This document shows positions 20,165 through 61,523 of a stretch of 62,397 bases of DNA, piece after piece; positions within the stretch are counted from its first letter, which is position 1; each line of letters starts with the position of its first letter. The notes beneath the pieces were generated by a model that was not told where the DNA came from, did not search any database, and saw nothing but the letters and a program-made list of their open reading frames with translations. Location of the stretch: assembly GCA_964411675.1 (NCBI GenBank), contig CAYPLR010000005.1, positions 1-62,397 on the forward strand. The letters run 5' to 3'. The DNA is from an uncultured Bacteroidales bacterium (GTDB taxonomy: Bacteria > Bacillota_I > Bacilli_A > ML615J-28 > CAG-698). The translations under genes were made by a program, and so were the position numbers.

Positions 20165-21886
20165 ATGGTTAAAAGTTTTATTAAGTATTATCGTCCTCAT
20201 ATAAAACTATTTATATTGGACATGGTTTGTGCACTAACAATATCTTTGATAGATTTACTATTTCCCATGGTTACTAGTAAAGTACTTAGGGAATATATTC
20301 CTAACGGAGCAATACGAACAATCGTTATAGTGGGAGTAGTCTTACTTGTTTTTTATGGAATCCGCTTCTTGTTATCCTATGTAATAGGATATTATGGGCA
20401 CATCATGGGAATAGGATTAGAAACGGATATGCGAACAGATTTGTTTAAAAAGTTTCAAACAATGGACTATCAGTTTTTTGATGATAAGAAAACAGGAGAA
20501 CTGATGACCAATTTAACAACGCATCTGCATGATGTGTCAGAGATGAGCCATCACGCACCAGAAGATTTATTTATTTCTTTTTTGATGCTAGTAGGAAGTT
20601 TTATTTATTTGATGTTTGTAAATGCATACTTAACAATGATTATATTTATTTTCTTATCCTTTCTTATTATTTATTCTATTTCTAGACGTAAAAAAATGAT
20701 GAAAGGCTTTCAAAATGCTAGAAATGCTCAAGGAGAGTTAAACGCAGAAGTAGAAAGTAGCATCAGTGGAATCCGATTAACAAAAGCATTTCATAATGAA
20801 GATTATGAAGAGAAAAAATTCGAAAAAATAAATACGTTATATAAGTCAGCACGAACAGAAACATTTCGCCAAATTGGTTTGTTCGGTTCAGGAAATGATT
20901 TTTTTATTAATCTAGCAAATTTAGCGTTACTTGTTTTTGGAGGATTTTTCGTCTATAAAAAATGGATTGATTATATTGATCTAACGACGTATTTCTTGTA
21001 TGTTAACTTCTTAATTAAACCTATTTCGAGATTAACAAATTCTATGGAGCAATTACAACAAGGATTTTCAGGAATAGAAAAGTTCTATAACATCATGAAT
21101 ATAAATCCTAAAATTGTAAGTTCTGAAAAAGGTATTGAGAAAAAAGATTTCATTGGTAATGTAGATTTTGTTGATGTGAAATTTAGTTATAATCAAAATG
21201 AGGATCAGTATGTATTATCTAATTTTACTCTAAGTATACCAGCTGGTAGAAAAGTAGCATTAGTAGGTGAAACAGGGGTTGGCAAGACAACAATATCGAA
21301 ATTAATTCCTCGTTTCTATGATGTTGAAGAAGGACAAGTAAAAGTTGATGGAATTGATGTTCGTGACTATAATCTATATAATCTTCGAGAAGCGATAGGT
21401 CACGTTCAACAGGATGTTTTCATTTTCTATGGAACCATTAAAGAAAATATCCTCTATGGTAAACCAGAAGCAACCATGGAAGAAGTAATAGAAGCGGCTA
21501 AGAATGCAAGAATTCATGATTTCATTATGACGCTTGAACAAGGGTATGATACCCTTACAGGAGAAAGAGGAATTAGGCTATCGGGTGGTCAACAACAGCG
21601 AATTGCAATTGCTAGACTCTTCCTAAAGAATCCTAAGATTCTAATTTTAGACGAAGCAACTTCTTCATTAGATAATATTACCGAAACCTTGATTCAAAAA
21701 TCATTTGATGATTTAGCGAAGGGAAAAACAACAATTGTAATAGCTCATCGCTTGACAACAATAAGAAATGCAGATGAAATTATAGTAATTGGTAAAAATG
21801 GAATATTGGAACGTGGAAAACACGAGGAATTAATGAATAATAATGGCTATTATTCCTCTTTGTATCATTCAAGTATTACAATATAA
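20165..21886 (+). CDS. ABC exporter, fused permease/ATPase
   Basis: N-terminal TM domain; GETGVGKT, LSGGQQQR, ILDEATS, AHR. Confidence 0.92.
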   Translation: MVKSFIKYYRPHIKLFILDMVCALTISLIDLLFPMVTSKVLREYIPNGAIRTIVIVGVVLLVFYGIRFLLSYVIGYYGHIMGIGLETDMRTDLFKKFQTMDYQFFDDKKTGELMTNLTTHLHDVSEMSHHAPEDLFISFLMLVGSFIYLMFVNAYLTMIIFIFLSFLIIYSISRRKKMMKGFQNARNAQGELNAEVESSISGIRLTKAFHNEDYEEKKFEKINTLYKSARTETFRQIGLFGSGNDFFINLANLALLVFGGFFVYKKWIDYIDLTTYFLYVNFLIKPISRLTNSMEQLQQGFSGIEKFYNIMNINPKIVSSEKGIEKKDFIGNVDFVDVKFSYNQNEDQYVLSNFTLSIPAGRKVALVGETGVGKTTISKLIPRFYDVEEGQVKVDGIDVRDYNLYNLREAIGHVQQDVFIFYGTIKENILYGKPEATMEEVIEAAKNARIHDFIMTLEQGYDTLTGERGIRLSGGQQQRIAIARLFLKNPKILILDEATSSLDNITETLIQKSFDDLAKGKTTIVIAHRLTTIRNADEIIVIGKNGILERGKHEELMNNNGYYSSLYHSSITI

Positions 21887-21893
21887 TAAGATT

Positions 21894-21925
21894 CGTGATG
21901 TTGTATTAGACATCACGCTTTTTTT
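21894..21925 (+). terminator. Intrinsic terminator
   Basis: CGTGATGT-8 nt-ACATCACG then CTTTTTTT. Confidence 0.8.
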
Positions 21926-21959
21926 ATTGTGATAGTGAAACGTTTTCACAAAAAAAGTT

Positions 21960-21987
21960 TTGACATGTACTGAGATAATGATATAAT
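21960..21987 (+). promoter_or_regulatory. Consensus sigma-A promoter of the amino-acid ABC importer operon
   Basis: TTGACA-16 nt-TATAAT with extended -10 TG; predicted TSS near 21994. Confidence 0.85.
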
Positions 21988-22004
21988 GATTGCATACAAA
22001 AAAA

Positions 22005-22085
22005 CGGGTTGAATTTAAAAGATAAAAGAAAAGATTTCTTTTTGAGCATAAATTTAAATTGAACCTATGTTTAATAGGTTTTTTT
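22005..22085 (+). promoter_or_regulatory. Leader attenuator unit 1 (antiterminator arm + conserved core + terminator)
   Basis: Core TTTAAAAGAT-[AAAAGAAA/AGA/TTTCTTTT]-TGAGCAT; terminator AACCTAT/ATAGGTT plus T-run; GGGTT 22006-10 pairs with AACCT 22062-66. Confidence 0.7.
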
Positions 22086-22094
22086 GTTACTAAT

Positions 22095-22181
22095 CCAGGA
22101 TGAATTTTATTTAAAAGATGAGAGAAAAGAATTCTCTTTGAGTATAGGTAAAAAATTTCAATCCTGAGATAGGATTTTTTT
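22095..22181 (+). promoter_or_regulatory. Leader attenuator unit 2
   Basis: Core TTTAAAAGAT-[GAGAGAA/AAGAA/TTCTCTT]-TGAGTAT; terminator AATCCT/AGGATT plus T-run; CAGGAT 22096-101 pairs with ATCCTG 22161-66. Confidence 0.7.
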
Positions 22182-22189
22182 ATTTTTAT

Positions 22190-22291
22190 CCAGGTTATTT
22201 TGTTTAAAAGATAGAAGTGATTCTTGAGCATAGTCTTAAAATACCTCTTGAGTATAAAGCAAAAAGCACCTGGTAAGGTACTTTTTATTTT
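22190..22291 (+). promoter_or_regulatory. Leader attenuator unit 3
   Basis: Core TTTAAAAGAT-[AGAA/GTGA/TTCT]-TGAGCAT plus a second TGAGTAT; terminator-like AAAAAGCACCT/AGGTACTTTTT (one C-A mismatch); CCAGGT 22190-95 pairs with ACCTGG 22268-73. Confidence 0.6.
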
Positions 22292-22305
22292 ACAGGAGGT
22301 TTTTT

Positions 22306-22353
22306 ATGCGGCGGAAGAACTCAAACACAAAAAACAGATTTGTAATCGGATAA
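22306..22353 (+). CDS. Putative leader peptide MRRKNSNTKNRFVIG (15 aa)
   Basis: Perfect AGGAGG SD at 22294-99, 6 nt before ATG; codons 2-3 are CGG CGG; not in ORF track; translation unproven. Confidence 0.45.
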   Translation: MRRKNSNTKNRFVIG

Positions 22354-22407: not shown

Positions 22408-23226
22408 ATGAAAAAAATTATTTGTTTTATATTATTAGTGATTAGTGTATTTGGATTAGCAGGATGTAAAAAGAATGTACTTAGTGAAATAACAAAAAAA
22501 GGTGAAATCGTAATCGTTACTTCACCAGACTATCCAGCATTTGAATTTATCGATGAGTCAAAAGAAGGACAAGATAAATATGTGGGTGCAGATATAGAAT
22601 TTATGAAATATATCGCTAAGGAATTGGGTGTAACATTAAAAATAGAAGCTACAGATTTTGATACAACATTAGCATTAGTATCAACAGGAGCTGCTGATTT
22701 AGCAATTTCAGGATTTACTTATAAACCCGAAAGAGCAGAAAACTATGAGCTATCTGATCCATATTATCAAGAAGGAACTCAAGGTATTATTATACTAAAG
22801 AGCGATTATGATAAGAATCAATACAACACATTAGCTAAATTAAATGTTGCTGGTGTAAAAGTTGGTGGACAAAGTGGATCATTACAATTTGACTATATTA
22901 CAAATCAACTACAAAACGCTACTGCAGAAGCATTTGCAAAAATTGCTGATGGATTACTATTACTTGACAATGGTACAATCAAAGCAGTTGCATTAGCATC
23001 AAGTGTTGCTGAAAATGTAATAGCCCAACAACCAGATAAATATGTATTCCTAGAAGAAACATTTACCGTTCCAACAGAAGAAACACAGTTGTTTGTTTTA
23101 GTAGCCAAAGGACAAACCGAATTAATCGAAAAGATTAATGAAATCATCGCAAAGATGATTGCTGAAGAAAAATATGAAATTTGGTTCCAAGAAGCAACTG
23201 ATTTAGCTGCAAGCTTAACTGAGTAA
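22408..23226 (+). CDS. Polar amino-acid ABC transporter substrate-binding lipoprotein
   Basis: Lipobox GLAGC, SPDYPAFEF, GADIE, DLAISGFTYKPER; start set to ATG 22408 behind GAGGAG (ORF track begins 22366). Confidence 0.9.
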   Translation: MKKIICFILLVISVFGLAGCKKNVLSEITKKGEIVIVTSPDYPAFEFIDESKEGQDKYVGADIEFMKYIAKELGVTLKIEATDFDTTLALVSTGAADLAISGFTYKPERAENYELSDPYYQEGTQGIIILKSDYDKNQYNTLAKLNVAGVKVGGQSGSLQFDYITNQLQNATAEAFAKIADGLLLLDNGTIKAVALASSVAENVIAQQPDKYVFLEETFTVPTEETQLFVLVAKGQTELIEKINEIIAKMIAEEKYEIWFQEATDLAASLTE

Positions 23227-23235
23227 AAATAAAAG

Positions 23236-23886
23236 ATGTTTGAAAACTTATACAAAATACTGATTAAATATTTTCCGTTATTTATGGAGGGGATGGGCGT
23301 TACCCTTCTCCTTTCTTTAATAACAGTGGTCTTTGGAACGATCCTAGGAACAATCTTTGCTTTGATGAGATTATCAAAAAGCAAAATACTAAATGTTATC
23401 TCCGAAATATATACGGAAATTGTAAGAGGAGTTCCCTTGTTGTTACAATTATGGGTAATTTATTTGTTGTTTAGTTCTACGCTTGGTAAAGTAGTAGCAG
23501 TGTGCTTAGCGCTGTTGTTAAATTCAGCAGCCTATGTTGCAGAAATTATTAGGTCGGGAATTCAAGCAGTAGATAAAGGTCAGGTGGAAGCTTCTAGAAG
23601 TTTGGGAATTAATGCCAATAAAACAATGATAAAAATAGTTCTTCCTCAAGCAATTAAGAATATCTTACCAGCATTGGGAAATGAATTTGTCACAGTAATA
23701 AAAGAAACTTCATTATCTTCAGTATTCTACATTGGAGATTTAATGACAGCCAAAACAATTATTACAACACAAACCTATTTAGCAATTGAACCTTACATTA
23801 TCATAGGAATTATCTATTTCATCTTAACGTATACGCTATCAAAAGTGATTGGTAAGTTTGAAAAGAGGTTGAAACTAAGTGATTAA
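23236..23886 (+). CDS. Polar amino-acid ABC transporter permease
   Basis: [37 protein letters not shown] (EAA motif), [14 protein letters not shown]. Confidence 0.93.
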
Positions 23887-24748
23887 AGTAAAGAATTTAC
23901 AGAAAAAATTTGGCTCTTTAGAAGTTTTAAAGGGAATAGATGAAACAATTGCAAAAGGTGAAGTAGTATCTGTTATAGGTCCTAGTGGTAGTGGTAAGTC
24001 AACATTTTTAAGATGTTTAAATTTGTTAGAAATTCCTACCAAAGGAACAATTGAATTTGATGGAGAAATCATTTATAAGAAAGAATCTTCGCGATACAAA
24101 AAAGCAGTTGATGCTATTAAAGCAAAGAAAAAAGAAATGAATTCTCAGGAATACAAAGAAAAATACGAGGCAGCTGTTTTAGAATATAAAGAGCATCAAA
24201 GCCTTGAAAAGGCACGACTAAAAAAATTAGATAAAACCATTAATGTTCATCGTCAAAAAATGGGAATGGTTTTCCAACATTTTAATGTTTTTCCTCATCT
24301 AAATGTATTAGAAAATATTACTTTAGCACCGATATTAACTAACAAAATGACGAAAGATGAAGCTGAAAAAGTAGCAAAAGATTTGTTGGAAAAGGTTGGC
24401 CTTAAAGATAAGGTGTATGAATATCCTAAAAAACTTAGTGGTGGTCAAAAACAACGTTTAGCCATTGCTAGAGCTCTTGCCATGAATCCTAAAGTTATGT
24501 TGTTTGATGAGCCAACAAGTGCTCTTGATCCGGAAATGGTAAAAGAAGTTTTGGATATCATTAAACAAGTTGTTAAAATGGGAATGACTGTTGTGATAGT
24601 AACCCACGAAATGGGATTTGCAAAAGAAATAAGTGATCGAGTTTTCTTTATGGACGATGGAAAAATTGTTGAAAAAGGAACCCCAAAAGAAGTTTTTGAG
24701 AATCCACAACATCCAAGAACAAAAGAATTCTTAAGTAAAGTGTTATAA
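23879..24748 (+). CDS. Polar amino-acid ABC transporter ATPase (GlnQ/ArtR-like) with ~45-aa insertion
   Basis: [44 protein letters not shown]. Confidence 0.93.
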
Positions 24749-24772
24749 AACTCTAGGCAACTAGAGTTTTTT
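24747..24772 (+). terminator. Intrinsic terminator
   Basis: AAAACTCTAG-GCAA-CTAGAGTTTT TT; GNRA loop. Confidence 0.85.
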
Positions 24773-50900: not shown

Positions 50901-51365
50901 ATGGAAATTGTTGAAAAAGCTTTAATCCTTGCTAATAAATGTGCAGAAAAACTGAAACTAAAGATTGTTGAAGTAGAATATGCAAAGGAAAACAATAGGA
51001 ACATTTTACGGATTATTGCGATTGATGACGAGACTTTAGATATCGATCAAGCAACAGATTTGAATAATTTGATTAGTGAGGAATTGGATAAAGAAGACTT
51101 TATTGATGAAGAATATTATCTAGAAGTTTCTTCTCCTGGAATAGAACGAGAGTTAAAAACAGAGGGAGAAATTAGTAAAGCTCAAGATAAGTATGTGTGT
51201 ATAAACACTTATGAAAAAATTGAAGGGCTTAAAGAAATATATGGGTATTTGCGAGAATATCTAAATAAGATTATTAAAGTAGAAACAAACATTAAAGGTA
51301 GAATTAAAACGATAGAAATTCCCTTTGAAAAAATTAGTAAAATAAGATTAGCTGTAAAATTTTAG
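50901..51365 (+). CDS. rimP: Ribosome maturation factor RimP
   Basis: LRII..D...ISEELD...EYYLEVSSPGIEREL; first gene of nusA operon. Confidence 0.93.
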   Translation: MEIVEKALILANKCAEKLKLKIVEVEYAKENNRNILRIIAIDDETLDIDQATDLNNLISEELDKEDFIDEEYYLEVSSPGIERELKTEGEISKAQDKYVCINTYEKIEGLKEIYGYLREYLNKIIKVETNIKGRIKTIEIPFEKISKIRLAVKF

Positions 51366-51374
51366 GAGGATGTT

Positions 51375-52454
51375 ATGATAAGTAAAAACTTTTTTGAATC
51401 GTTAGAAAGTGTAGCGTTTGATCGGGGATTAGATATCCACGATGTTTTGGATAAAGTAGAAATTGCAATCGCTGTTGCTTGTAGAGATACAGAGTACAAA
51501 GGTGAAATAAAAATGGAATGTGATTTCGAAAAGAAGAAAATCAAAGTATATGATTATCGCTATGTTGTTGAAGAATTAACAGAAGGCAATAAAGGGGAAA
51601 TCCTTATAGAAGAGGCACAATTCCTAAAGCCCAAAAGCAAAGTAGGAAGTGTTATTAAAAGAGAAGTTGATTTAAACAAATTTGGAAGAAAATCAGCTAG
51701 TAAATTTAAACAAACCTTGTTAAGTGGATTAAAAGAATTAGAGCGAGAAGAAGCATTCAATTTCTTTAGTGAAAAAATTGGAGAAATTATTAATGTAAAG
51801 ATTATCAATAATGCAAATGGCTTTATTACATTTGCAATTGGTAAGAATAGTGAAGCCACTATGCCTGAAACAGAAGGACTACCAGGCGAAGAATTTGTTG
51901 TTGGTGAAAGCAAAAAAGTATACATTACTAAAGTGGAAAAAACAACAAAAGGCCCAAAGGTGTTCTTAACTCGTTCAAACAAAGAAATCGTAAAAAGATT
52001 GTTTGAACTAACGATCCCAGAAATTGCAGATGGCTCAATTGAAATTATGGGAATTTCTCGTGATCCAGGAAGCAGAACAAAAGTTGGAGTACAATCACTA
52101 AAACCTAATCTAGATCCGAAAGGAGCTTGTGTAGGACAAGGTGGATTGCGTATTAAGAGCATTAATGAAGATCTAAATAATGAAAAAATAGATATATTCA
52201 CATGGAAGGATAATCCAGTTGATTTAATAGCAGAAGCATTACTTCCTGCAAGATCACTAAGCGTAATTGTTGATGAAAAAGCAAAGAAAGCAACAGTGGT
52301 CGTTCGAGATGACCAATATTCACTAGCGATTGGTAAGAATGGGCAAAATGCTCGTTTAGCTGCTTATGCAACTGATTGGCGCATCGATATTAAAAAACTA
52401 TCAGATGCAACCAAAGAAGGTATTGAATTTCAATATAACGTAATTCAAAAATAA
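51375..52454 (+). CDS. nusA: Transcription termination/antitermination factor NusA
   Basis: S1 domain, RDPGSRTKV, GACVGQGG.RI..I, EKIDI, SLAIGKNGQNARLA. Confidence 0.97.
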   Translation: MISKNFFESLESVAFDRGLDIHDVLDKVEIAIAVACRDTEYKGEIKMECDFEKKKIKVYDYRYVVEELTEGNKGEILIEEAQFLKPKSKVGSVIKREVDLNKFGRKSASKFKQTLLSGLKELEREEAFNFFSEKIGEIINVKIINNANGFITFAIGKNSEATMPETEGLPGEEFVVGESKKVYITKVEKTTKGPKVFLTRSNKEIVKRLFELTIPEIADGSIEIMGISRDPGSRTKVGVQSLKPNLDPKGACVGQGGLRIKSINEDLNNEKIDIFTWKDNPVDLIAEALLPARSLSVIVDEKAKKATVVVRDDQYSLAIGKNGQNARLAAYATDWRIDIKKLSDATKEGIEFQYNVIQK

Positions 52455-52465
52455 GGAGGTGTAGT

Positions 52466-52744
52466 ATGAACAAAACTAAAAAAGTTCCACTTAGAAAATG
52501 CGTTGCAACTAATGAACAATATCCAAAGAAAGAGATGTTTAGAATTGTTCGCACACCTGAGGGAAATGTTATTCTTGATGAGAAAGGCAAGGCAAATGGT
52601 CGCGGAGCCTATCTTAGTAAAAATGTAGAGGCCATTACACAAGCAAAGAAAAAGAAAATACTTGATAAACATTTAGAAGTTGTAGTCCCTGAAGAAATCT
52701 ATGAACTTTTACTATCAAAGTTAGGTGGTACTGGTGACGAATGA
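52466..52744 (+). CDS. ylxR: YlxR (DUF448, RnpM-like) RNA-binding protein
   Basis: PLRKCV, EMFRIVR, GRGAYL. Confidence 0.93.
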   Translation: MNKTKKVPLRKCVATNEQYPKKEMFRIVRTPEGNVILDEKGKANGRGAYLSKNVEAITQAKKKKILDKHLEVVVPEEIYELLLSKLGGTGDE

Positions 52745-53060
52745 TGAAAGAGTGTTAAATTTATTAGGATTGGCGTATAAAGCACGTAAAGTTATTACGG
52801 GAGAAGAAAATGTAATAAAACTTCTTCAGAATCAGAAAGCAAAGATTGTTTTTGTGGCTAGTGACGCTTCAAGTAGAACGATAGACAATTTTAAAAGAAA
52901 ATGTTTTTTCTATAAAGTAAACGTTAATTTTAGTTTTAATACGGAAAAATTGACAAAGGCACTGGGAAAAACATTAGTAAAAATATTGGCGATTACTGAC
53001 CAAGGATTTTATGAATCTTTGCAAGGACTTTTAGAACGAGGTGATAATTATGAAAGTTAA
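52725..53060 (+). CDS. ylxQ: L7Ae-family protein YlxQ
   Basis: [37 protein letters not shown]. Confidence 0.9.
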
Positions 53061-55353
53061 AGATATATTAGAGATATTAAAAATTCCTCAAGAAAAATTA
53101 TTGAAGGATTTAAGCAACATTGATATTGAAGCTGATTTAGAAACAGATATACCAAGTGATGTTGTTAAGAAACTGAGTAAGAGATATGGGGTAGAGCTTA
53201 AACCAATAAAAGCAAAAAAAGAGTCGGTGGTTAAGATTGCAACATCAGAGGAAAAACCAGCCGAAAAAGAGAAAATCGAAGAGAAACCAGCGGAAGAAAA
53301 GTTGGTTGAAGTAAAAGAAGAAAGCAAACCTGAAGTAAAAGAACAACCTGTTATAGTAGAAGAGGCCAGCGAAAAGAAAAAGGTTACTAAAAAACAAGAA
53401 ACACAAAAACAAGCACCTATTGTAGAAGTAGAAGATCAAGGAAAAAAAACCACTTCTGAAATCGATGTAGAATTAACTAGAGTTTATGATGATTCCTATA
53501 ATGATTATGTTCAAGAAACAAAAGAATACACGCGATTAAAAAATATTAAAAAGAAACAAAAAAATCGTCAACAAGGACGTCAAAGTAATATTGAGGAAAA
53601 AAAAGAAAAAGCAAATGTATTATATTTTATTCCCGGTATGACTGTTGCTCAAATAGCTGATGGTCTTGGCTTAGGATATAGTGAAATTGTTCGTAAATTA
53701 ATTGATCTTGGATTTATGGTTTCAGCAACTCAATCTATCGATCGAGATGTTGTGGAATTATTAGCAGAAGATTCTGGATTTACATTAAAGAATAAAGTTT
53801 CTGAAGATATTACTAAATTTGAAGAAATTGTAATTGAAGATGAGGAAGAAACATTAATACCACGCCCAGCAATTGTTACAATCATGGGACATGTTGACCA
53901 TGGAAAAACTACTTTACTAGATACTATACGTAATACCAAAGTGGTTGCTGGCGAAGCGGGAGGAATTACACAACATATTGGTGCTTATCAAGTAAAGAAA
54001 AAAGGTAAAATAATAACATTCATTGACACTCCTGGCCATGCTGCATTTACAGAAATGCGAGCACGAGGCGCTCAATTAACCGATATCGTTATCTTGGTTG
54101 TTGCTGCCGATGATGGAGTTATGCCACAAACTAAAGAAGCAATCGAGCATGCCCAAGCAGCAAATGTACCAATCATTGTTGCTATTAATAAAATGGACAA
54201 GCCGTCAGCAAATCCTGAACGGGTAAAACAAGAGTTAACAGCCTATAATCTTATTCCAGAAGAATGGGGTGGATCAACAATCTTTGTTCCGATTTCTGCC
54301 TTAACTGGAAAAGGAGTAGATGATTTATTAGAAATGGTTGTTTTAACAGCTGATATTGAGAATTATCGCGCAAATCCGAATCGCCTTGGAATTGGAATCG
54401 TTATTGAAGCTAAGTTAGACAAAGGCCGCGGACCTGTTGCAACATTCCTTGTAAAGAACGGAACCATTAAAGTTGGAGATCCAATTGTTGTAGGAAATAC
54501 ATATGGTAAAATTAGAGCTATGCAAGATGAGACCAAAGCTAGTTTAAAATCAGCAGGTCCATCAAAAGCAGTTGAGGTTACGGGATTAGTTGATGTTCCT
54601 CAAGCAGGTGATAGTTTTATGGTATTTGAAGATGAAAGAACAACAAGATTAATTAGTGAAGAACGTAGTAGCCGTGCTTTCGATATTGAAATGGGTGTAG
54701 GTAAAGAAATTAATCTAAAGACTATTTTCGATAAGCTAGATGATTCACAAAAAGAATTAAATTTAATCATTAAAGGCGATGTTCAAGGTTCTATTGAGGC
54801 TTTACGTAATTCATTAGAAAAAGTAGAAGTTGAAGGTGTGAAAATAAATGTTGTTCGTGGTGGTGTAGGAGCCATTACAGAAACAGATATTACTTTAGCG
54901 GTTGCTTCTAGTGCAATTATCATTGGATTCAACATTCGTCCAAATGCAGCAACGTTTAAATTAGCAAGCGAAAAGAAAATTGAAATTAGATTATATAATA
55001 TTATTTATAAAGTCTTAGAAGATATTCAAGCAGCAATGGTTGGTATGCTTGATCCGGTGTTTGAAGAAAAGATTACTGGAGAAGCAGAAATAAGAACAAT
55101 CTTTAAAGCTTCAAAAGTTGGAACCATCGCAGGATGTTATGTAACGAATGGATATATCACACGAAATTCTGATATTCGTTTAATTAGAGATAGTATTGTA
55201 ATATATGAAGGAAAACTTTCATCATTAAAGAGATTTAAAGATGATGTAAAAGAAGTGAAACTTGGTTACGAATGTGGAATGACAATAGAAAACTATAATG
55301 ATATCAAGGAAGGCGATATCATTGAAGCTTATATTATGGAAAAGGTAAAGTAA
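53050..55353 (+). CDS. infB: Translation initiation factor IF-2
   Basis: [31 protein letters not shown]; start set to ATG 53050. Confidence 0.98.
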
Positions 55354-55355
55354 AA

Positions 55356-55685
55356 ATGAAACATCGTCAAGTTAGATTGGAAAAAATTATTGAGAGGGAA
55401 TTAGGTCGGATACTCTTAACAGAAGTAAAAGATGAACGATTACGATATGTTACTATTTTTAGAGTTGATTTGAATAACGATTATTCTGTTGCGAATGTCT
55501 ATTTTTCAGTAATGGGTAGCGAAGAGCAAAAACAGTCTACTGCAAGAGTATTAGAAGAAGCCAAAGGATTCATAAGAAGTTCTTTAGGAAAAGTTCTAGA
55601 AATTAGAAAAGTTCCAGAACTACGATTTAAGTACGATAAGTACGGAGAAAAAATCGAAGACATTCTACAAGGCTTGAAAAAATAG
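55356..55685 (+). CDS. rbfA: Ribosome-binding factor A
   Basis: KDERL..VTI.RVDL..DYSVANVY, KGFIRS.LG..L..RKVPELRF.YD. Confidence 0.95.
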   Translation: MKHRQVRLEKIIERELGRILLTEVKDERLRYVTIFRVDLNNDYSVANVYFSVMGSEEQKQSTARVLEEAKGFIRSSLGKVLEIRKVPELRFKYDKYGEKIEDILQGLKK

Positions 55686-58325: not shown

Positions 58326-58350
58326 AAAAAGTCGAAATCGACTTTTTTTT
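58324..58350. terminator. Bidirectional terminator
   Basis: AAAAAAAGTCG-AAAT-CGACTTTTTTT between the exonuclease gene and guaA. Confidence 0.85.
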
Positions 58351-59884
58351 ATTCCCATTCTATTGTTCCAGGAGGTTTCGATGTGATATCAAACACAATA
58401 CGATTACATCCGGTTACTTCGTTTACAATACGATTACTAATTTTTGCAAGAATTGGGTAAGGAATTCTTGCCCAATCAGCAGTCATTCCATCAATACTAG
58501 TAATTACTCTAATTGCAACAACATAGTCATAAGTCCGCTTGTCTCCCATGACACCAACACTTTTTGTATTAGTTACCACGGTGAAGGCTTGCCAAACCTC
58601 AGTTTCTAAACGATTGTTTTGAAGTTCTTCTTGTAAAATAGCATCACTTTCTCGAGCGATTCTTAGTTTTTCTTCGGTGATTTCACCAATGACACGAATG
58701 CCTAATCCTGGACCAGGAAATGGTTGACGATTGACAATAAAAGGATGAAGACCTAAAGAAAGACCTAATTGACGTACTTCATCTTTAAATAAATCCTTTA
58801 ATGGTTCTATGACTTTAAACTTCATATCTTTAGGGAGTCCACCAACATTATGATGAGATTTAATGGTTGTAGCTGTTTTTGTTCCTGATTCTATAATATC
58901 TGTATAAAGAGTGCCTTGACCAAGGAAAGAGAAGTCTCCTAGTTTATTCGCTTCGAAATCAAATGTATCGATAAATTCTTTACCAATAATTTTTCGCTTC
59001 TGTTCAGGGTCTGTAATGCCTGATAAAACTTTTAAAAAACGGTCTTTTGCATCAATTTTAACAACATTGATATGATAATATTCATCAAACATTTTCATTA
59101 CTTGATTCGCTTCATTTTTTCTCAATAATCCATGATCAATAAACATACAAGTTAGGTTAGAACCAATCGCTTTATGAATTAATAGAGCAGCAACACTGGA
59201 ATCAACTCCACCAGAAATTCCCATTAGGACTTTTTCCTGACCAACAATTTCTTGTATTTCTTTTATTTTTTCTTGGACATAATTTTTCATATTCCAATTT
59301 GCTTTTGCATGGCATATTTGAAAAACAAAGTTTTTTAAAATCTGTGTTCCATATTCTGTGTTTTGTACTTCAGGATGAAATTGTACTCCGAATAGATTGG
59401 CTTTTGTATCTTCAAAAGCTGCAATACTACATGTTTTTGAAGAAGCGGTAACAGTATAATCTTGAGGGAGAAATACAACTTTATCACCATGACTCATCCA
59501 TACTGTTTGCTTCAATGATGTATCCTGAAATAATGTGGACTCCATATTGGTGGTAATTTCTTGATAGCCATATTCTCTCACGGAAGATTCTTCAATTTTA
59601 CCATTATGATGTTGTGCAATATATTGCATTCCATAACAAATTCCTAAAATAGGAACATTCATTTGAAAGATAGCTTCATTACAAGCAAAAGAATTATTTT
59701 CATATACGGAATGAGGACCACCGCTCAAGATAATTCCTTTGATATTTTTTATTGATTGTAATCTTTCAAGAGAAACATCATAAGGTAAGAGCTCTGAATA
59801 AACTCCCATTTCACGAATTCTGCGAGCAATTAATTGGTTATATTGACTACCAAAATCAAGAACGATTATTATATTTGTCTGCAT
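58349..59884 (-). CDS. guaA: GMP synthase (glutamine-hydrolysing)
   Basis: [47 protein letters not shown]. Confidence 0.98.
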
Positions 59885-59891
59885 AATTCAC

Positions 59892-61403
<1,512 letters not shown>

Positions 61404-61439
61404 ATACGAAAAAGAGATTGAAATAATCTTGCTTTGTAT

Positions 61440-61504
61440 GTCTTAGTACCTATTTTTTGGTTAGGTGTAGAAACGATTGAACCATATTATCAATCATATA
61501 AGAC
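61440..61504 (-). ncRNA. Purine (guanine) riboswitch aptamer
   Basis: GUCUUA UAU GAUUGAU AAUAUGG UUCAAUC GUUUCUAC ACCUAA CCAAAAA AUAGGU AC UAAGAC; C at position 74 indicates guanine; GACAUAC/GUAUGUC antiterminator present. Confidence 0.95.
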
Positions 61505-61514
61505 TTTTTTATGT

Positions 61515-61523
61515 ATTATATCA
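61515..61523 (-). promoter_or_regulatory. Extended -10 promoter of riboswitch-guaBA
   Basis: TGA-TATAAT on minus strand about 10 nt upstream of aptamer P1; -35 weak. Confidence 0.6.

Follow-up and report, generated by a model that had tools for sequence, protein, structure and literature searches.

Antiterminators that are stabilised by a protein are known from several systems, LicT and SacY acting on the RAT sequence, HutP on the hut mRNA and GlpP on glpD. In the T-box the specifier codon directly precedes a conserved purine and the closing helix. Genes for arginine are known to be under the control of ArgR-type repressors and of some T-boxes, and we know of no natural riboswitch or RNA-binding antiterminator that serves arginine supply. 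The bulge of the T-box pairs with the NCCA end of tRNA (PMC7583486). AND gates in which a T-box is combined with a ppGpp riboswitch, both with ON logic, have been documented upstream of amino-acid genes, and triple tandem riboswitches have been documented as well (PMC9481103).

The window described here (the whole stretch of DNA that was analysed, 62,397 nucleotides) carries three consecutive RNA units in the leader of an operon for an amino-acid ABC importer. These units are a previously undescribed leader-RNA family that uses the known terminator/antiterminator principle, and either a new riboswitch or a new protein-dependent antitermination system is a genuine candidate for what they represent.

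Three units between the promoter and the importer operon

The leader lies in a non-coding region of 520 nt between the gene for an MsbA-like ABC exporter (20165-21886), which has its own terminator (21894-21917), and the genes of the importer. A sigma-70 promoter on the forward strand at 21960-21987 (TTGACA-16-TATAAT with a TG extension) matches the consensus at 12 of 12 positions, in agreement with the original prediction of a consensus promoter at this site, and its position is kept in the orthologous leaders; the predicted transcription start falls in an A-rich stretch at about 21994-21996. Approximately 10 nt 5' of the -35 element, also on the forward strand, is a palindrome, GTGAAACGTTTTCAC (21935-21949), whose core (AAACGTTT) recurs 5' of the promoter in every orthologous leader read. 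This palindrome may be an operator of the LacI-family or cre-like type, which would provide a DNA-level input to the same promoter. The regulated operon (22408-24748, forward strand) consists of the genes for an SBP_bac_3 lipoprotein (22408-23226), a permease (23236-23886) and an ABC ATPase (23879-24748), as shown by Pfam and NCBIfam matches, and ends at a terminator at 24747-24772. NCBIfam places the transporter at the level of the polar amino-acid systems as a group (Cys, Gln, Arg, His).

The same plan is folded three times in the leader, always on the forward strand. From the outside to the inside it consists of an outer helix (P1b), with a 3' strand that doubles as the terminator's 5' arm; an inner, AU-rich helix (P1a); an internal loop in which 5'-M-A-A-G-A-U (J12) faces 5'-U-G-A-G-Y-R (J21); and an apical hairpin (P2) that is variable in sequence and in length. 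Unit 1 (22006-22085) was identified by folding and by a match of 52.6 bits (E=3e-11) to R1, a covariance model built from 14 cores. The arms of its P1 lie at 22006-22017 (5') and 22049-22066 (3') and enclose J12 (AAAGAT, 22018-22023), P2 (22024-22042) and J21 (TGAGCA, 22043-22048), and its terminator and T-run occupy 22061-22085. In unit 2 (22095-22181; 52.3 bits) P1 (5' arm 22095-22113, 3' arm 22145-22166) encloses J12 at 22114-22119, P2 at 22120-22138 and J21 (TGAGTA) at 22139-22144, with the terminator and T-run at 22160-22181. Unit 3 (22190-22291; 39.7 bits, and again recovered by folding) has its P1 arms at 22190-22206 and 22255-22273, J12 at 22207-22212 and the terminator with T-run at 22261-22291, and here the 3' half-site of the core, YUCUUGAGY, is duplicated. 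P2 of this unit can close on the near copy, giving a proximal P2 (22213-22224) followed by TGAGCA (22225-22230), or it can close further out, on the copy adjoining P1, in a longer domain whose extended P2 reaches to 22248 and is followed by the second half-site, TGAGTA (22249-22254). The duplication is kept in the last unit of nine leaders, those of the window (W) and of L001, L099, L103, L007, L011, L108, L109 and L101; the last units of L107 and L113 have a single TTGAG and no duplicated half-site.

Three homologous units with a core recurring at 22014, 22110 and 22203 had been proposed for this leader, each ending in a terminator hairpin with a T-run and each with a 5' segment complementary to its own terminator arm, so that the antiterminator helix would enclose the invariant core. 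The exact-match count bears out the first point, since TTTAAAAGAT occurs exactly three times in the 62 kb, at these positions and always on the forward strand. The complementary arms are all present: GGGTTGAATTTA(AA) with TTTAAATTGAACCT in unit 1, CCAGGATGAA with TTCAATCCTG in unit 2 and CCAGGT..TTTTG with CAAAA..ACCTGG in unit 3. The folds likewise place the conserved core within the antiterminator. A terminator was found at the end of each unit, though all three are weak, with 2-3 G-C pairs and energies of -6 to -7.5 kcal/mol, which is why a simple terminator scan of the forward strand detected none of them. A repeat finder returned a three-copy family of 36 nt with spacings of 96 and 86; the units were not called as an array by Tandem Repeats Finder because they are less than 70% alike.

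The units have what characterises attenuators in general, namely a hairpin plus U-run whose 5' arm alternatively pairs with an upstream segment. The overlap with the terminator is limited to the outer 5-6 bp of P1, the inner part of P1 being free of it. Compared with shuffled sequences, the aptamer part folds more stably in units 1 and 2 (z=-4.4 and z=-3.5, respectively), and in unit 2 the antiterminator is the minimum-free-energy fold. When the terminator was forced, or its 3' arm blocked, most units showed a difference of no more than about 0-3 kcal/mol between the two conformers; such nearly isoenergetic conformers are as expected for a switch.

Conservation and distribution of the units

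Conservation was assessed in 29 distinct cores, a whole-unit MAFFT alignment (A3) having been left out of the analysis since it mis-aligned the cores. Ten bases of the internal loop are invariant (A6, A8, A9, G10, A11, U65, U66, G67, A68 and G69) and an eleventh, U12, is kept in 28 of the 29. Pairing in P2 stands at 96%, with compensatory changes on both sides in four of the five pairs; the covariation score of this helix was reached by none of 500 shuffles and its pairing was halved when the partner was slid by one column. The presence of G-U pairs in P2 identifies the forward strand as the RNA strand. In the first three pairs of P2 the purine is always on the 5' strand. The 29 cores thereby show the combination by which riboswitches are recognised, co-varying helices around an invariant unpaired core. 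Compensatory changes between orthologs are also seen in the helices of unit 2, which read CAUAGUUAA/UUAGUUUAUG in L011 as against CAGAUUAA/UUAAUUUGUG in L108. Beside the loop, P1a is 66% paired in a fixed register. By comparison of flanks P1 is nevertheless judged to be real, although it has no fixed register adjoining the loop, because each flank pairs far better with its own terminator arm (-11.9 kcal/mol) than swapped flanks do (-6.3 kcal/mol; Mann-Whitney p=9e-12), and for 23 of 30 units the pairing of the own flank is equalled by less than 10% of the foreign ones. That the kept pairing argues for selection on structure had been proposed from the three units alone, and the compensatory changes in P2 and the specificity for the own flank agree with this; on such comparative evidence the leader units are a real, selected RNA structure.

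Homologs of the binding protein are found only in uncultured Bacilli-type metagenome bins. Leaders of orthologs were read from a binding-protein identity of 93% down to 42%, and units are present in at least 10 lineages of uncultured Bacilli in which the binding protein is 43-93% identical. The most frequent arrangement is that of the window, three units followed by a short open reading frame (the mini-ORF discussed below), and it recurs in L001-L006, L099, L100, L102, L103/L104, L007-L009, L011-L014, L108 and L109. In L113 at least two units and the mini-ORF are present in a leader that reaches the contig end. Two units with nothing further are found in L101 and L107, a single unit followed by a T-box in L015 and L017/L064, a divergent unit followed by a T-box in L114 (where the core was seen by eye and was not detected by R1) and one unit plus another hairpin-terminator in L019. 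Neither element is present in L111/L112, whose binding protein is 42% identical. Units 1, 2 and 3 are orthologous between lineages in position and order, the flank of unit 3, for instance, being CYAGGUUAUUUUGWUUUA in the window and in L011 alike; the triplication therefore dates far back and has since been preserved.

Within the window R1 matches the three units at 40-53 bits, the next best match scoring 14 bits with E of about 1, and it finds no further copy, either there or among other loci amounting to about 0.9 Mb; the gene downstream of its matches always belongs to the same transporter family. A GTDB-wide scan with the pattern ACAAGATAGGTN{2,32}ACCTTGAG, which represents one variant of P2, gave 78 matches, one of which is genuine (L064, from a Bacilli MAG of the L017 type), the others being coding or chance matches. 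Of nine matches to the unit-3 signature in a metagenome scan, five are genuine leader loci that had not been seen before and that add three lineages, one repeats a known contig and three are chance matches in coding sequence, and no new gene context was found for the motif. Across the window, the related loci and both scans it was thus observed solely in front of this transporter family.

These data bear on the reading that the leader holds no functional RNA at all, the units being repeats that arose by chance, elements of a mobile or repetitive kind, operators in the DNA or a stretch of a gene on the other strand. The count of the 10-mer in the whole window is indeed not above chance (1.8 expected), the unusual feature being the clustering of the copies within 190 nt on one strand, and a mechanically called minus-strand ORF of 120 codons (21869-22231) overlaps the leader. 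This ORF is absent from the orthologous leaders and was rejected. Taken with the lack of other copies, the strand-specific covariation with G-U pairs and the orthology of unit position and order, this makes the absence of a functional RNA extremely improbable.

The window leader and the L011 leader were searched against Rfam 15, and neither gave a match at the gathering score or at E<=10 that stands apart from noise, the best score for the window leader being 21 bits against a threshold of 60. The searches were evidently working, since they recovered a purine riboswitch and tRNA elsewhere in the window as well as the T-boxes of L015, L017, L064 and L114, the latter at 134-138 bits as a positive control. 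There is thus no significant match to a characterised family, orphan Bacillota motifs included. No T-box was matched in the window at the gathering score or at E<=10, and the T-box bulge GGUGGNACC (searched as GGTGG.ACC) is absent from the leader. Pattern scans of the leader also found no strings of the RAT core consensus, no HutP signature (UAG-N4 three times), no PyrR signature and no run of the TRAP type (at least nine (G/U)AG triplets spaced by 2-3 nt). A single loose NAG-N4 triplet repeat is seen in unit 3 only and is not kept in L011. The Rfam and pattern scans agree with the original prediction that signatures of the T-box, PyrR, RAT, L-box, S-box and glycine classes are lacking here, and a description of the motif was not found in literature searches. 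The wider proposal, an uncharacterised antiterminator switch stacked three times, is upheld by these negative results together with the orthologs and the pairing.

The link to arginine and the putative effector

The T-boxes of the relatives offer a view of what the operon may respond to. Their specifier loops read GAA-C-CGC-A in L015, GAA-G-CGC-A in L017 and GAA-U-CGC-A in L114. As read from the alignment, the specifier would be CGC, an arginine codon, because this codon directly precedes the conserved purine and the closing helix; the base before it varies among the three T-boxes, as a base outside the codon should. The T-box bulge in these orthologs is UGGU, which pairs with an ACCA end and therefore agrees with tRNA-Arg, bacterial tRNA-His being excluded by its C73. 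A link to histidine and HutP, suggested by hutH-hutU downstream in L015 and L017, was considered and rejected; the hut genes form a transcription unit of their own behind a separate terminator, and both the specifier, CGC followed by A, and the bulge, which fits A73, speak against it.

In the window the corresponding place is taken by a strong Shine-Dalgarno sequence (AGGAGG, 22294-22299) and a mini-ORF of 15 codons (ATG CGG CGG ... TAA, MRRKNSNTKNRFVIG, 22306-22353), the two together spanning 22294-22353 on the forward strand. The Shine-Dalgarno sequence and ATG CGG are kept at the nucleotide level in nine lineages, the remainder of the peptide and its length being free, and the codons after AUG CGG often include CGG or AGA. 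CGG is the rarest arginine codon in the window (22 of 587, 3.7%). The mini-ORF is thus a candidate for a ribosome-based arginine sensor that would replace the T-box as the sensor of arginine limitation. The operon presumably imports arginine, because of the arginine T-boxes of its orthologs and the AUG-CGG mini-ORF, and the link to Arg, Lys, Gln or a starvation signal suggested earlier is narrowed to arginine by the same two features. The mini-ORF cannot act by classical attenuation because it starts after the last T-run (which ends at 22291), and no ORF of the leader-peptide kind was found inside units 1-3; that a stalled ribosome might protect or unmask the downstream mRNA is only a guess. 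Two further candidates were set aside, an arginine-rich mini-peptide that binds RNA, as the peptide is not conserved beyond M-R, and pairing of the tRNA-Arg anticodon with AAGAU (through its AGA codon), for which no complementarity or acceptor-binding element was seen by eye.

With a palindrome at 21935-21949, a T-box in relatives and a mini-ORF all available as inputs, and with unit terminators as weak as those described above, it could be argued that the units sense nothing, being constitutive partial terminators or elements of RNA stability or processing that set a low basal level, and that all regulation comes from the upstream operator and the T-box or mini-ORF. We regard this as improbable. 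A plain terminator needs no conserved unpaired loop, no co-varying P2, no overlap between P1 and terminator and no balanced energies, and these are kept in at least 10 lineages.

We propose instead that the units are switches with ON logic. The nascent RNA of each unit would fold either as the long hairpin or as the weak intrinsic terminator; an effector that recognises the invariant loop would hold the long hairpin shut, the terminator could then not form and RNA polymerase would read on. Three units in series would multiply the probabilities of read-through, giving low leak and a steep response, and the switch would act together with a separate sensor of arginine limitation, the arginine T-box in relatives and the AUG CGG CGG mini-ORF here. 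Stabilisation of the antiterminator in this sense, taken alone, is probably correct, and ON logic is best supported because the loop and P2 form the apex of the antiterminator and there is no separate anti-antiterminator. Logic of the opposite sign would have the antiterminator as the default, with a factor, either a TRAP-like protein with arginine as co-repressor or a ligand, opening or blocking P1 and thereby letting the terminators fold under ample arginine. An importer would be well served by feedback repression through arginine, which would also agree with the logic of the T-box, and for many units folding in the absence of an effector already gives the antiterminator as the minimum-free-energy structure, so that negative control is possible and the ON reading is to that extent weakened. 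The conserved P2 and both strands of the loop are, however, the apex of the antiterminator itself, holding the strands of the loop together should favour P1, and the energies are balanced and do not strongly favour the antiterminator. The OFF arrangement, including its arginine-bound factor, therefore has little probability in our judgement.

For the ON switch, the lineages with a single unit constrain when the effector must be present. In these the polymerase has to pass the terminators of both the unit and the T-box, so the effector should be there when tRNA-Arg is uncharged, and free arginine is accordingly disfavoured as the inducing ligand. By analogy with the AND gates of T-box and ppGpp riboswitch, this timing fits a starvation signal, or else a protein that is active at low arginine. 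The occurrence of one unit with a T-box and of two or three without suggests that the two modules serve related purposes.

Several observations point to a small molecule bound directly by the RNA, one that would rise under a shortage of arginine or of amino acids, for example an alarmone of the (p)ppGpp type. The loop has stayed invariant even where identity of the binding protein falls to 43%, and this is easier to explain if the effector is itself not subject to evolution. In none of the roughly 12 lineages examined does the operon have a conserved regulator gene beside it (DUF951, which adjoins the leader in some loci, was discarded as a partner; its position reflects the synteny of the origin region and it is absent in L015 and L017), and no known antiterminator domain is encoded within the 62-kb window, none of its 59 ORFs encoding a CAT/PRD, ANTAR, HutP, TRAP (MtrB) or PyrR protein. 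The tandem and T-box-coupled arrangements are typical of riboswitches and count in the same direction. Against a small molecule, what is conserved is compact, some 6x6 nt of internal loop flanked by two helices of which P1a is incompletely paired beside the loop, and the loop resembles the K-turn or box C/D signature (G.A, A.G, U.U), which is typically a platform for proteins. A sensor of a global alarmone would moreover be expected to serve more than a single transporter family from a narrow lineage of uncultured bacteria, the confinement seen here resting for the present genome on the approximately 62 kb searched. The full statement, an ON attenuator whose loop binds a small molecule directly, is accordingly put forward as a tentative reading whose chances fall somewhat short of even.

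The same loop is the chief reason to consider a trans-encoded RNA-binding protein, which would bind the K-turn-like loop and P2, stabilise the antiterminator and have its activity set by arginine status. The element is a hairpin of simple build whose purine-rich internal loop (GA/UGA plus U.U) does not vary, the purine is kept 5' in the first three pairs of P2, the P2 loops of units 1 and 2 repeat AAGAU/AAGAA in the window's lineage and the motif precedes one operon only. A gene of the L7Ae family (YlxQ) is present in the window at 52725-53060, and C/D-box matches, weak, sub-threshold and at the level of noise, were seen in two lineages. The points already made for a small molecule, that is the missing regulator gene and antiterminator domain and the invariance of the loop over deep divergence, count against a protein, as does the absence of RAT, HutP, TRAP and PyrR signatures; furthermore, three attenuators following directly on one another are not known to us from any system that depends on a protein. 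A protein effector is a serious possibility, if on balance a doubtful one.

More specific still is the idea that the small-molecule switch is a new riboswitch class and the first dedicated to arginine homeostasis, in which the loop 5'-AAGAU/5'-UUGAG would directly bind a signal of starvation or of the arginine pathway, either a metabolite so far lacking a known riboswitch or an alarmone, (p)ppGpp for instance, and which would be used either as a single copy before an arginine T-box or as a pseudo-cooperative set of two or three beside a ribosome sensor of one codon (CGG). In this complete form the idea is rather unlikely. Should the effector be a small molecule, a riboswitch class would be added, possibly with a new ligand; should it be a protein, a new antitermination system would be defined.

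Comparison with known systems

What sets these leaders apart is the combination, by lineage, of a compact conserved RNA module in up to three copies with an arginine T-box or an AUG-CGG mini-ORF, which amounts to a natural experiment in the swapping and stacking of leader modules. The hosts are uncultured and the motif is apparently confined to one transporter family; with a core of about 45-60 nt it should be easy to test in vitro and might serve as a genetic part.

The T-box (RF00230) is close to the units in function. Like the units it opposes an antiterminator to an intrinsic terminator, controls genes of amino-acid supply in Bacillota and may occur in series (thrZ/thrS), and the T-box-controlled arginine transporters of the art/yqiXYZ type have their parallel in the arginine T-boxes on the orthologous transporters described here. 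The units have no Stem I, specifier loop or T-box sequence and gave no match in cmscan, their core is about 45-60 nt as against about 220 nt for the T-box, and in relatives the unit precedes the T-box as a separate module. Such a series, an ON attenuator and a T-box each with its own terminator, is also formed by the ppGpp riboswitch (ykkC subtype 2a; PMC9481103). The units match ykkC-type RNAs in neither sequence nor structure, and ppGpp as their ligand would be an analogy alone.

A short hairpin with an internal loop that overlaps a terminator and gives operon-specific control is shared with the RAT elements of BglG, SacY and LicT and with the HutP, GlpP, PyrR and TRAP systems. The hairpin of those systems is the target of a regulated RNA-binding protein, which either stabilises or blocks it. 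In the units the signatures of RAT, HutP, TRAP and PyrR are absent, and genes for PRD/CAT, HutP, MtrB or PyrR proteins were not found nearby. The loop itself resembles the K-turn or box C/D motif bound by L7Ae, YbxF and YlxQ, with 5'-NNN-GA-U facing 5'-U-GA next to the regular helix P2, possible G.A, A.G and U.U pairs and a three-base stretch on the 5' strand. The other strand, however, has three unpaired bases (G-Y-R) where the C-stem should start, and a K-turn register for the flank of the loop was rejected as no better than the alternative, the C-stem register being 58% paired against 66%.

Leader-peptide and stalled-ribosome systems (his, trp and phe, or the ermC type) resemble the window's leader in having a short ORF with rare cognate codons, here AUG CGG CGG, but the mini-ORF lies 3' of all three terminators and no overlapping alternative hairpin was found. 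In overall architecture the leader is like the triple tandem riboswitches (c-di-GMP-I, glycine singlets, FMN, TPP and SAM-I), which have three sensor-plus-terminator units in one leader and for which a pseudo-cooperative, more digital response is expected. Those are built from known aptamer classes, whereas the units described here would form a new candidate class, with an extra half-site in the last unit.

Half-sites and P2 hairpins of the attenuator units

The 3' half-site YUCUUGAGY occurs twice in unit 3 of the leader (22213-22254), with the copies approximately 20 nt apart, and the same doubling was found in the last unit of the orthologous loci L001, L099, L103, L007, L011, L108, L109 and L101 from other uncultured Bacilli lineages. 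The second copy is missing from the last unit of L107 and L113. The presence of two copies means that two alternative closures of P2 are possible; of the two, the far copy alone lies next to P1. In units 1 and 2 of the window lineage (22030-22035 and 22127-22131) and of the L007 lineage (3574 and 3678), the loop sequence AAGAU/AAGAA recurs in the P2 loops, and in unit 1 of L103 both copies read AAGAG. No such repeat was seen in the P2 loops of the L011 lineage. In the closest relatives, L001 (3687-3742) and L003 (3686-3741), P2 of unit 2 holds a 20-nt internal duplication, GATAAGAGAAAAGAATTCTC present twice, which is absent from unit 2 of the window.

Divergent forms of the motif were also found. 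That of L114 (2125-2195), CCACAAGAAGAGGAAACTCTGAGCATAG, carries AAGAA, lacks the closing A-U pair and was not detected by R1, the covariance model built from 14 unit cores, while that of L113 (1-135), ACAAAGAT, has a single additional A. The motif family is therefore broader than R1 picks up.

Mini-ORF and importer operon

Downstream of unit 3 lies a strong Shine-Dalgarno sequence with a mini-ORF, MRRKNSNTKNRFVIG (22294-22353). Its ATG CGG start is conserved at the nucleotide level in nine lineages, often with CGG or AGA as the next codon, and the peptide beyond this start is unconstrained among lineages. CGG is the least used arginine codon within the window (3.7%). The mini-ORF is confined to leaders without the Arg T-box.

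The ABC ATPase of the importer (23879-24748) is 289 aa in length, an insertion of approximately 45 residues interrupting the ABC_tran match; its orthologs in other lineages have 245-267 aa. In L015 (6362-8822) and L017 (6363-8503) genes for histidine ammonia-lyase and urocanase lie 3' of the transporter after a separate terminator, whereas L113 and L111 have an M20 peptidase downstream instead.

Other features of the window

YlxQ (52725-53060), a K-turn-binding type protein of the L7Ae family, is the sole window-encoded candidate for binding a GA-type loop; its gene belongs to a standard rimP-nusA-ylxR-ylxQ-infB-rbfA operon (50901-55685). A purine riboswitch (61424-61523, minus strand; 64 bits) precedes minus-strand genes for IMP dehydrogenase (59892-61361) and GMP synthase (58349-59884).

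Promoter region and transcript start

The transcript has an A-rich 5' end, ACAAAAAAAC (21996-22005), complementary at 10 of 10 positions to the stretch around the U-tract of terminator 1 (22078-22087), and an A-rich start is retained in the orthologs. It could lengthen the first antiterminator, or could mirror control by an A-initiating promoter. Approximately 10 nt upstream of the -35 element is a palindrome, GTGAAACGTTTTCAC (21935-21949), the core of which, AAACGTTT, is retained on the upstream side of the promoter in all orthologous leaders. As this candidate operator looks like those of the LacI family (cre-like), the importer operon is probably also under a regulator acting at the level of DNA.
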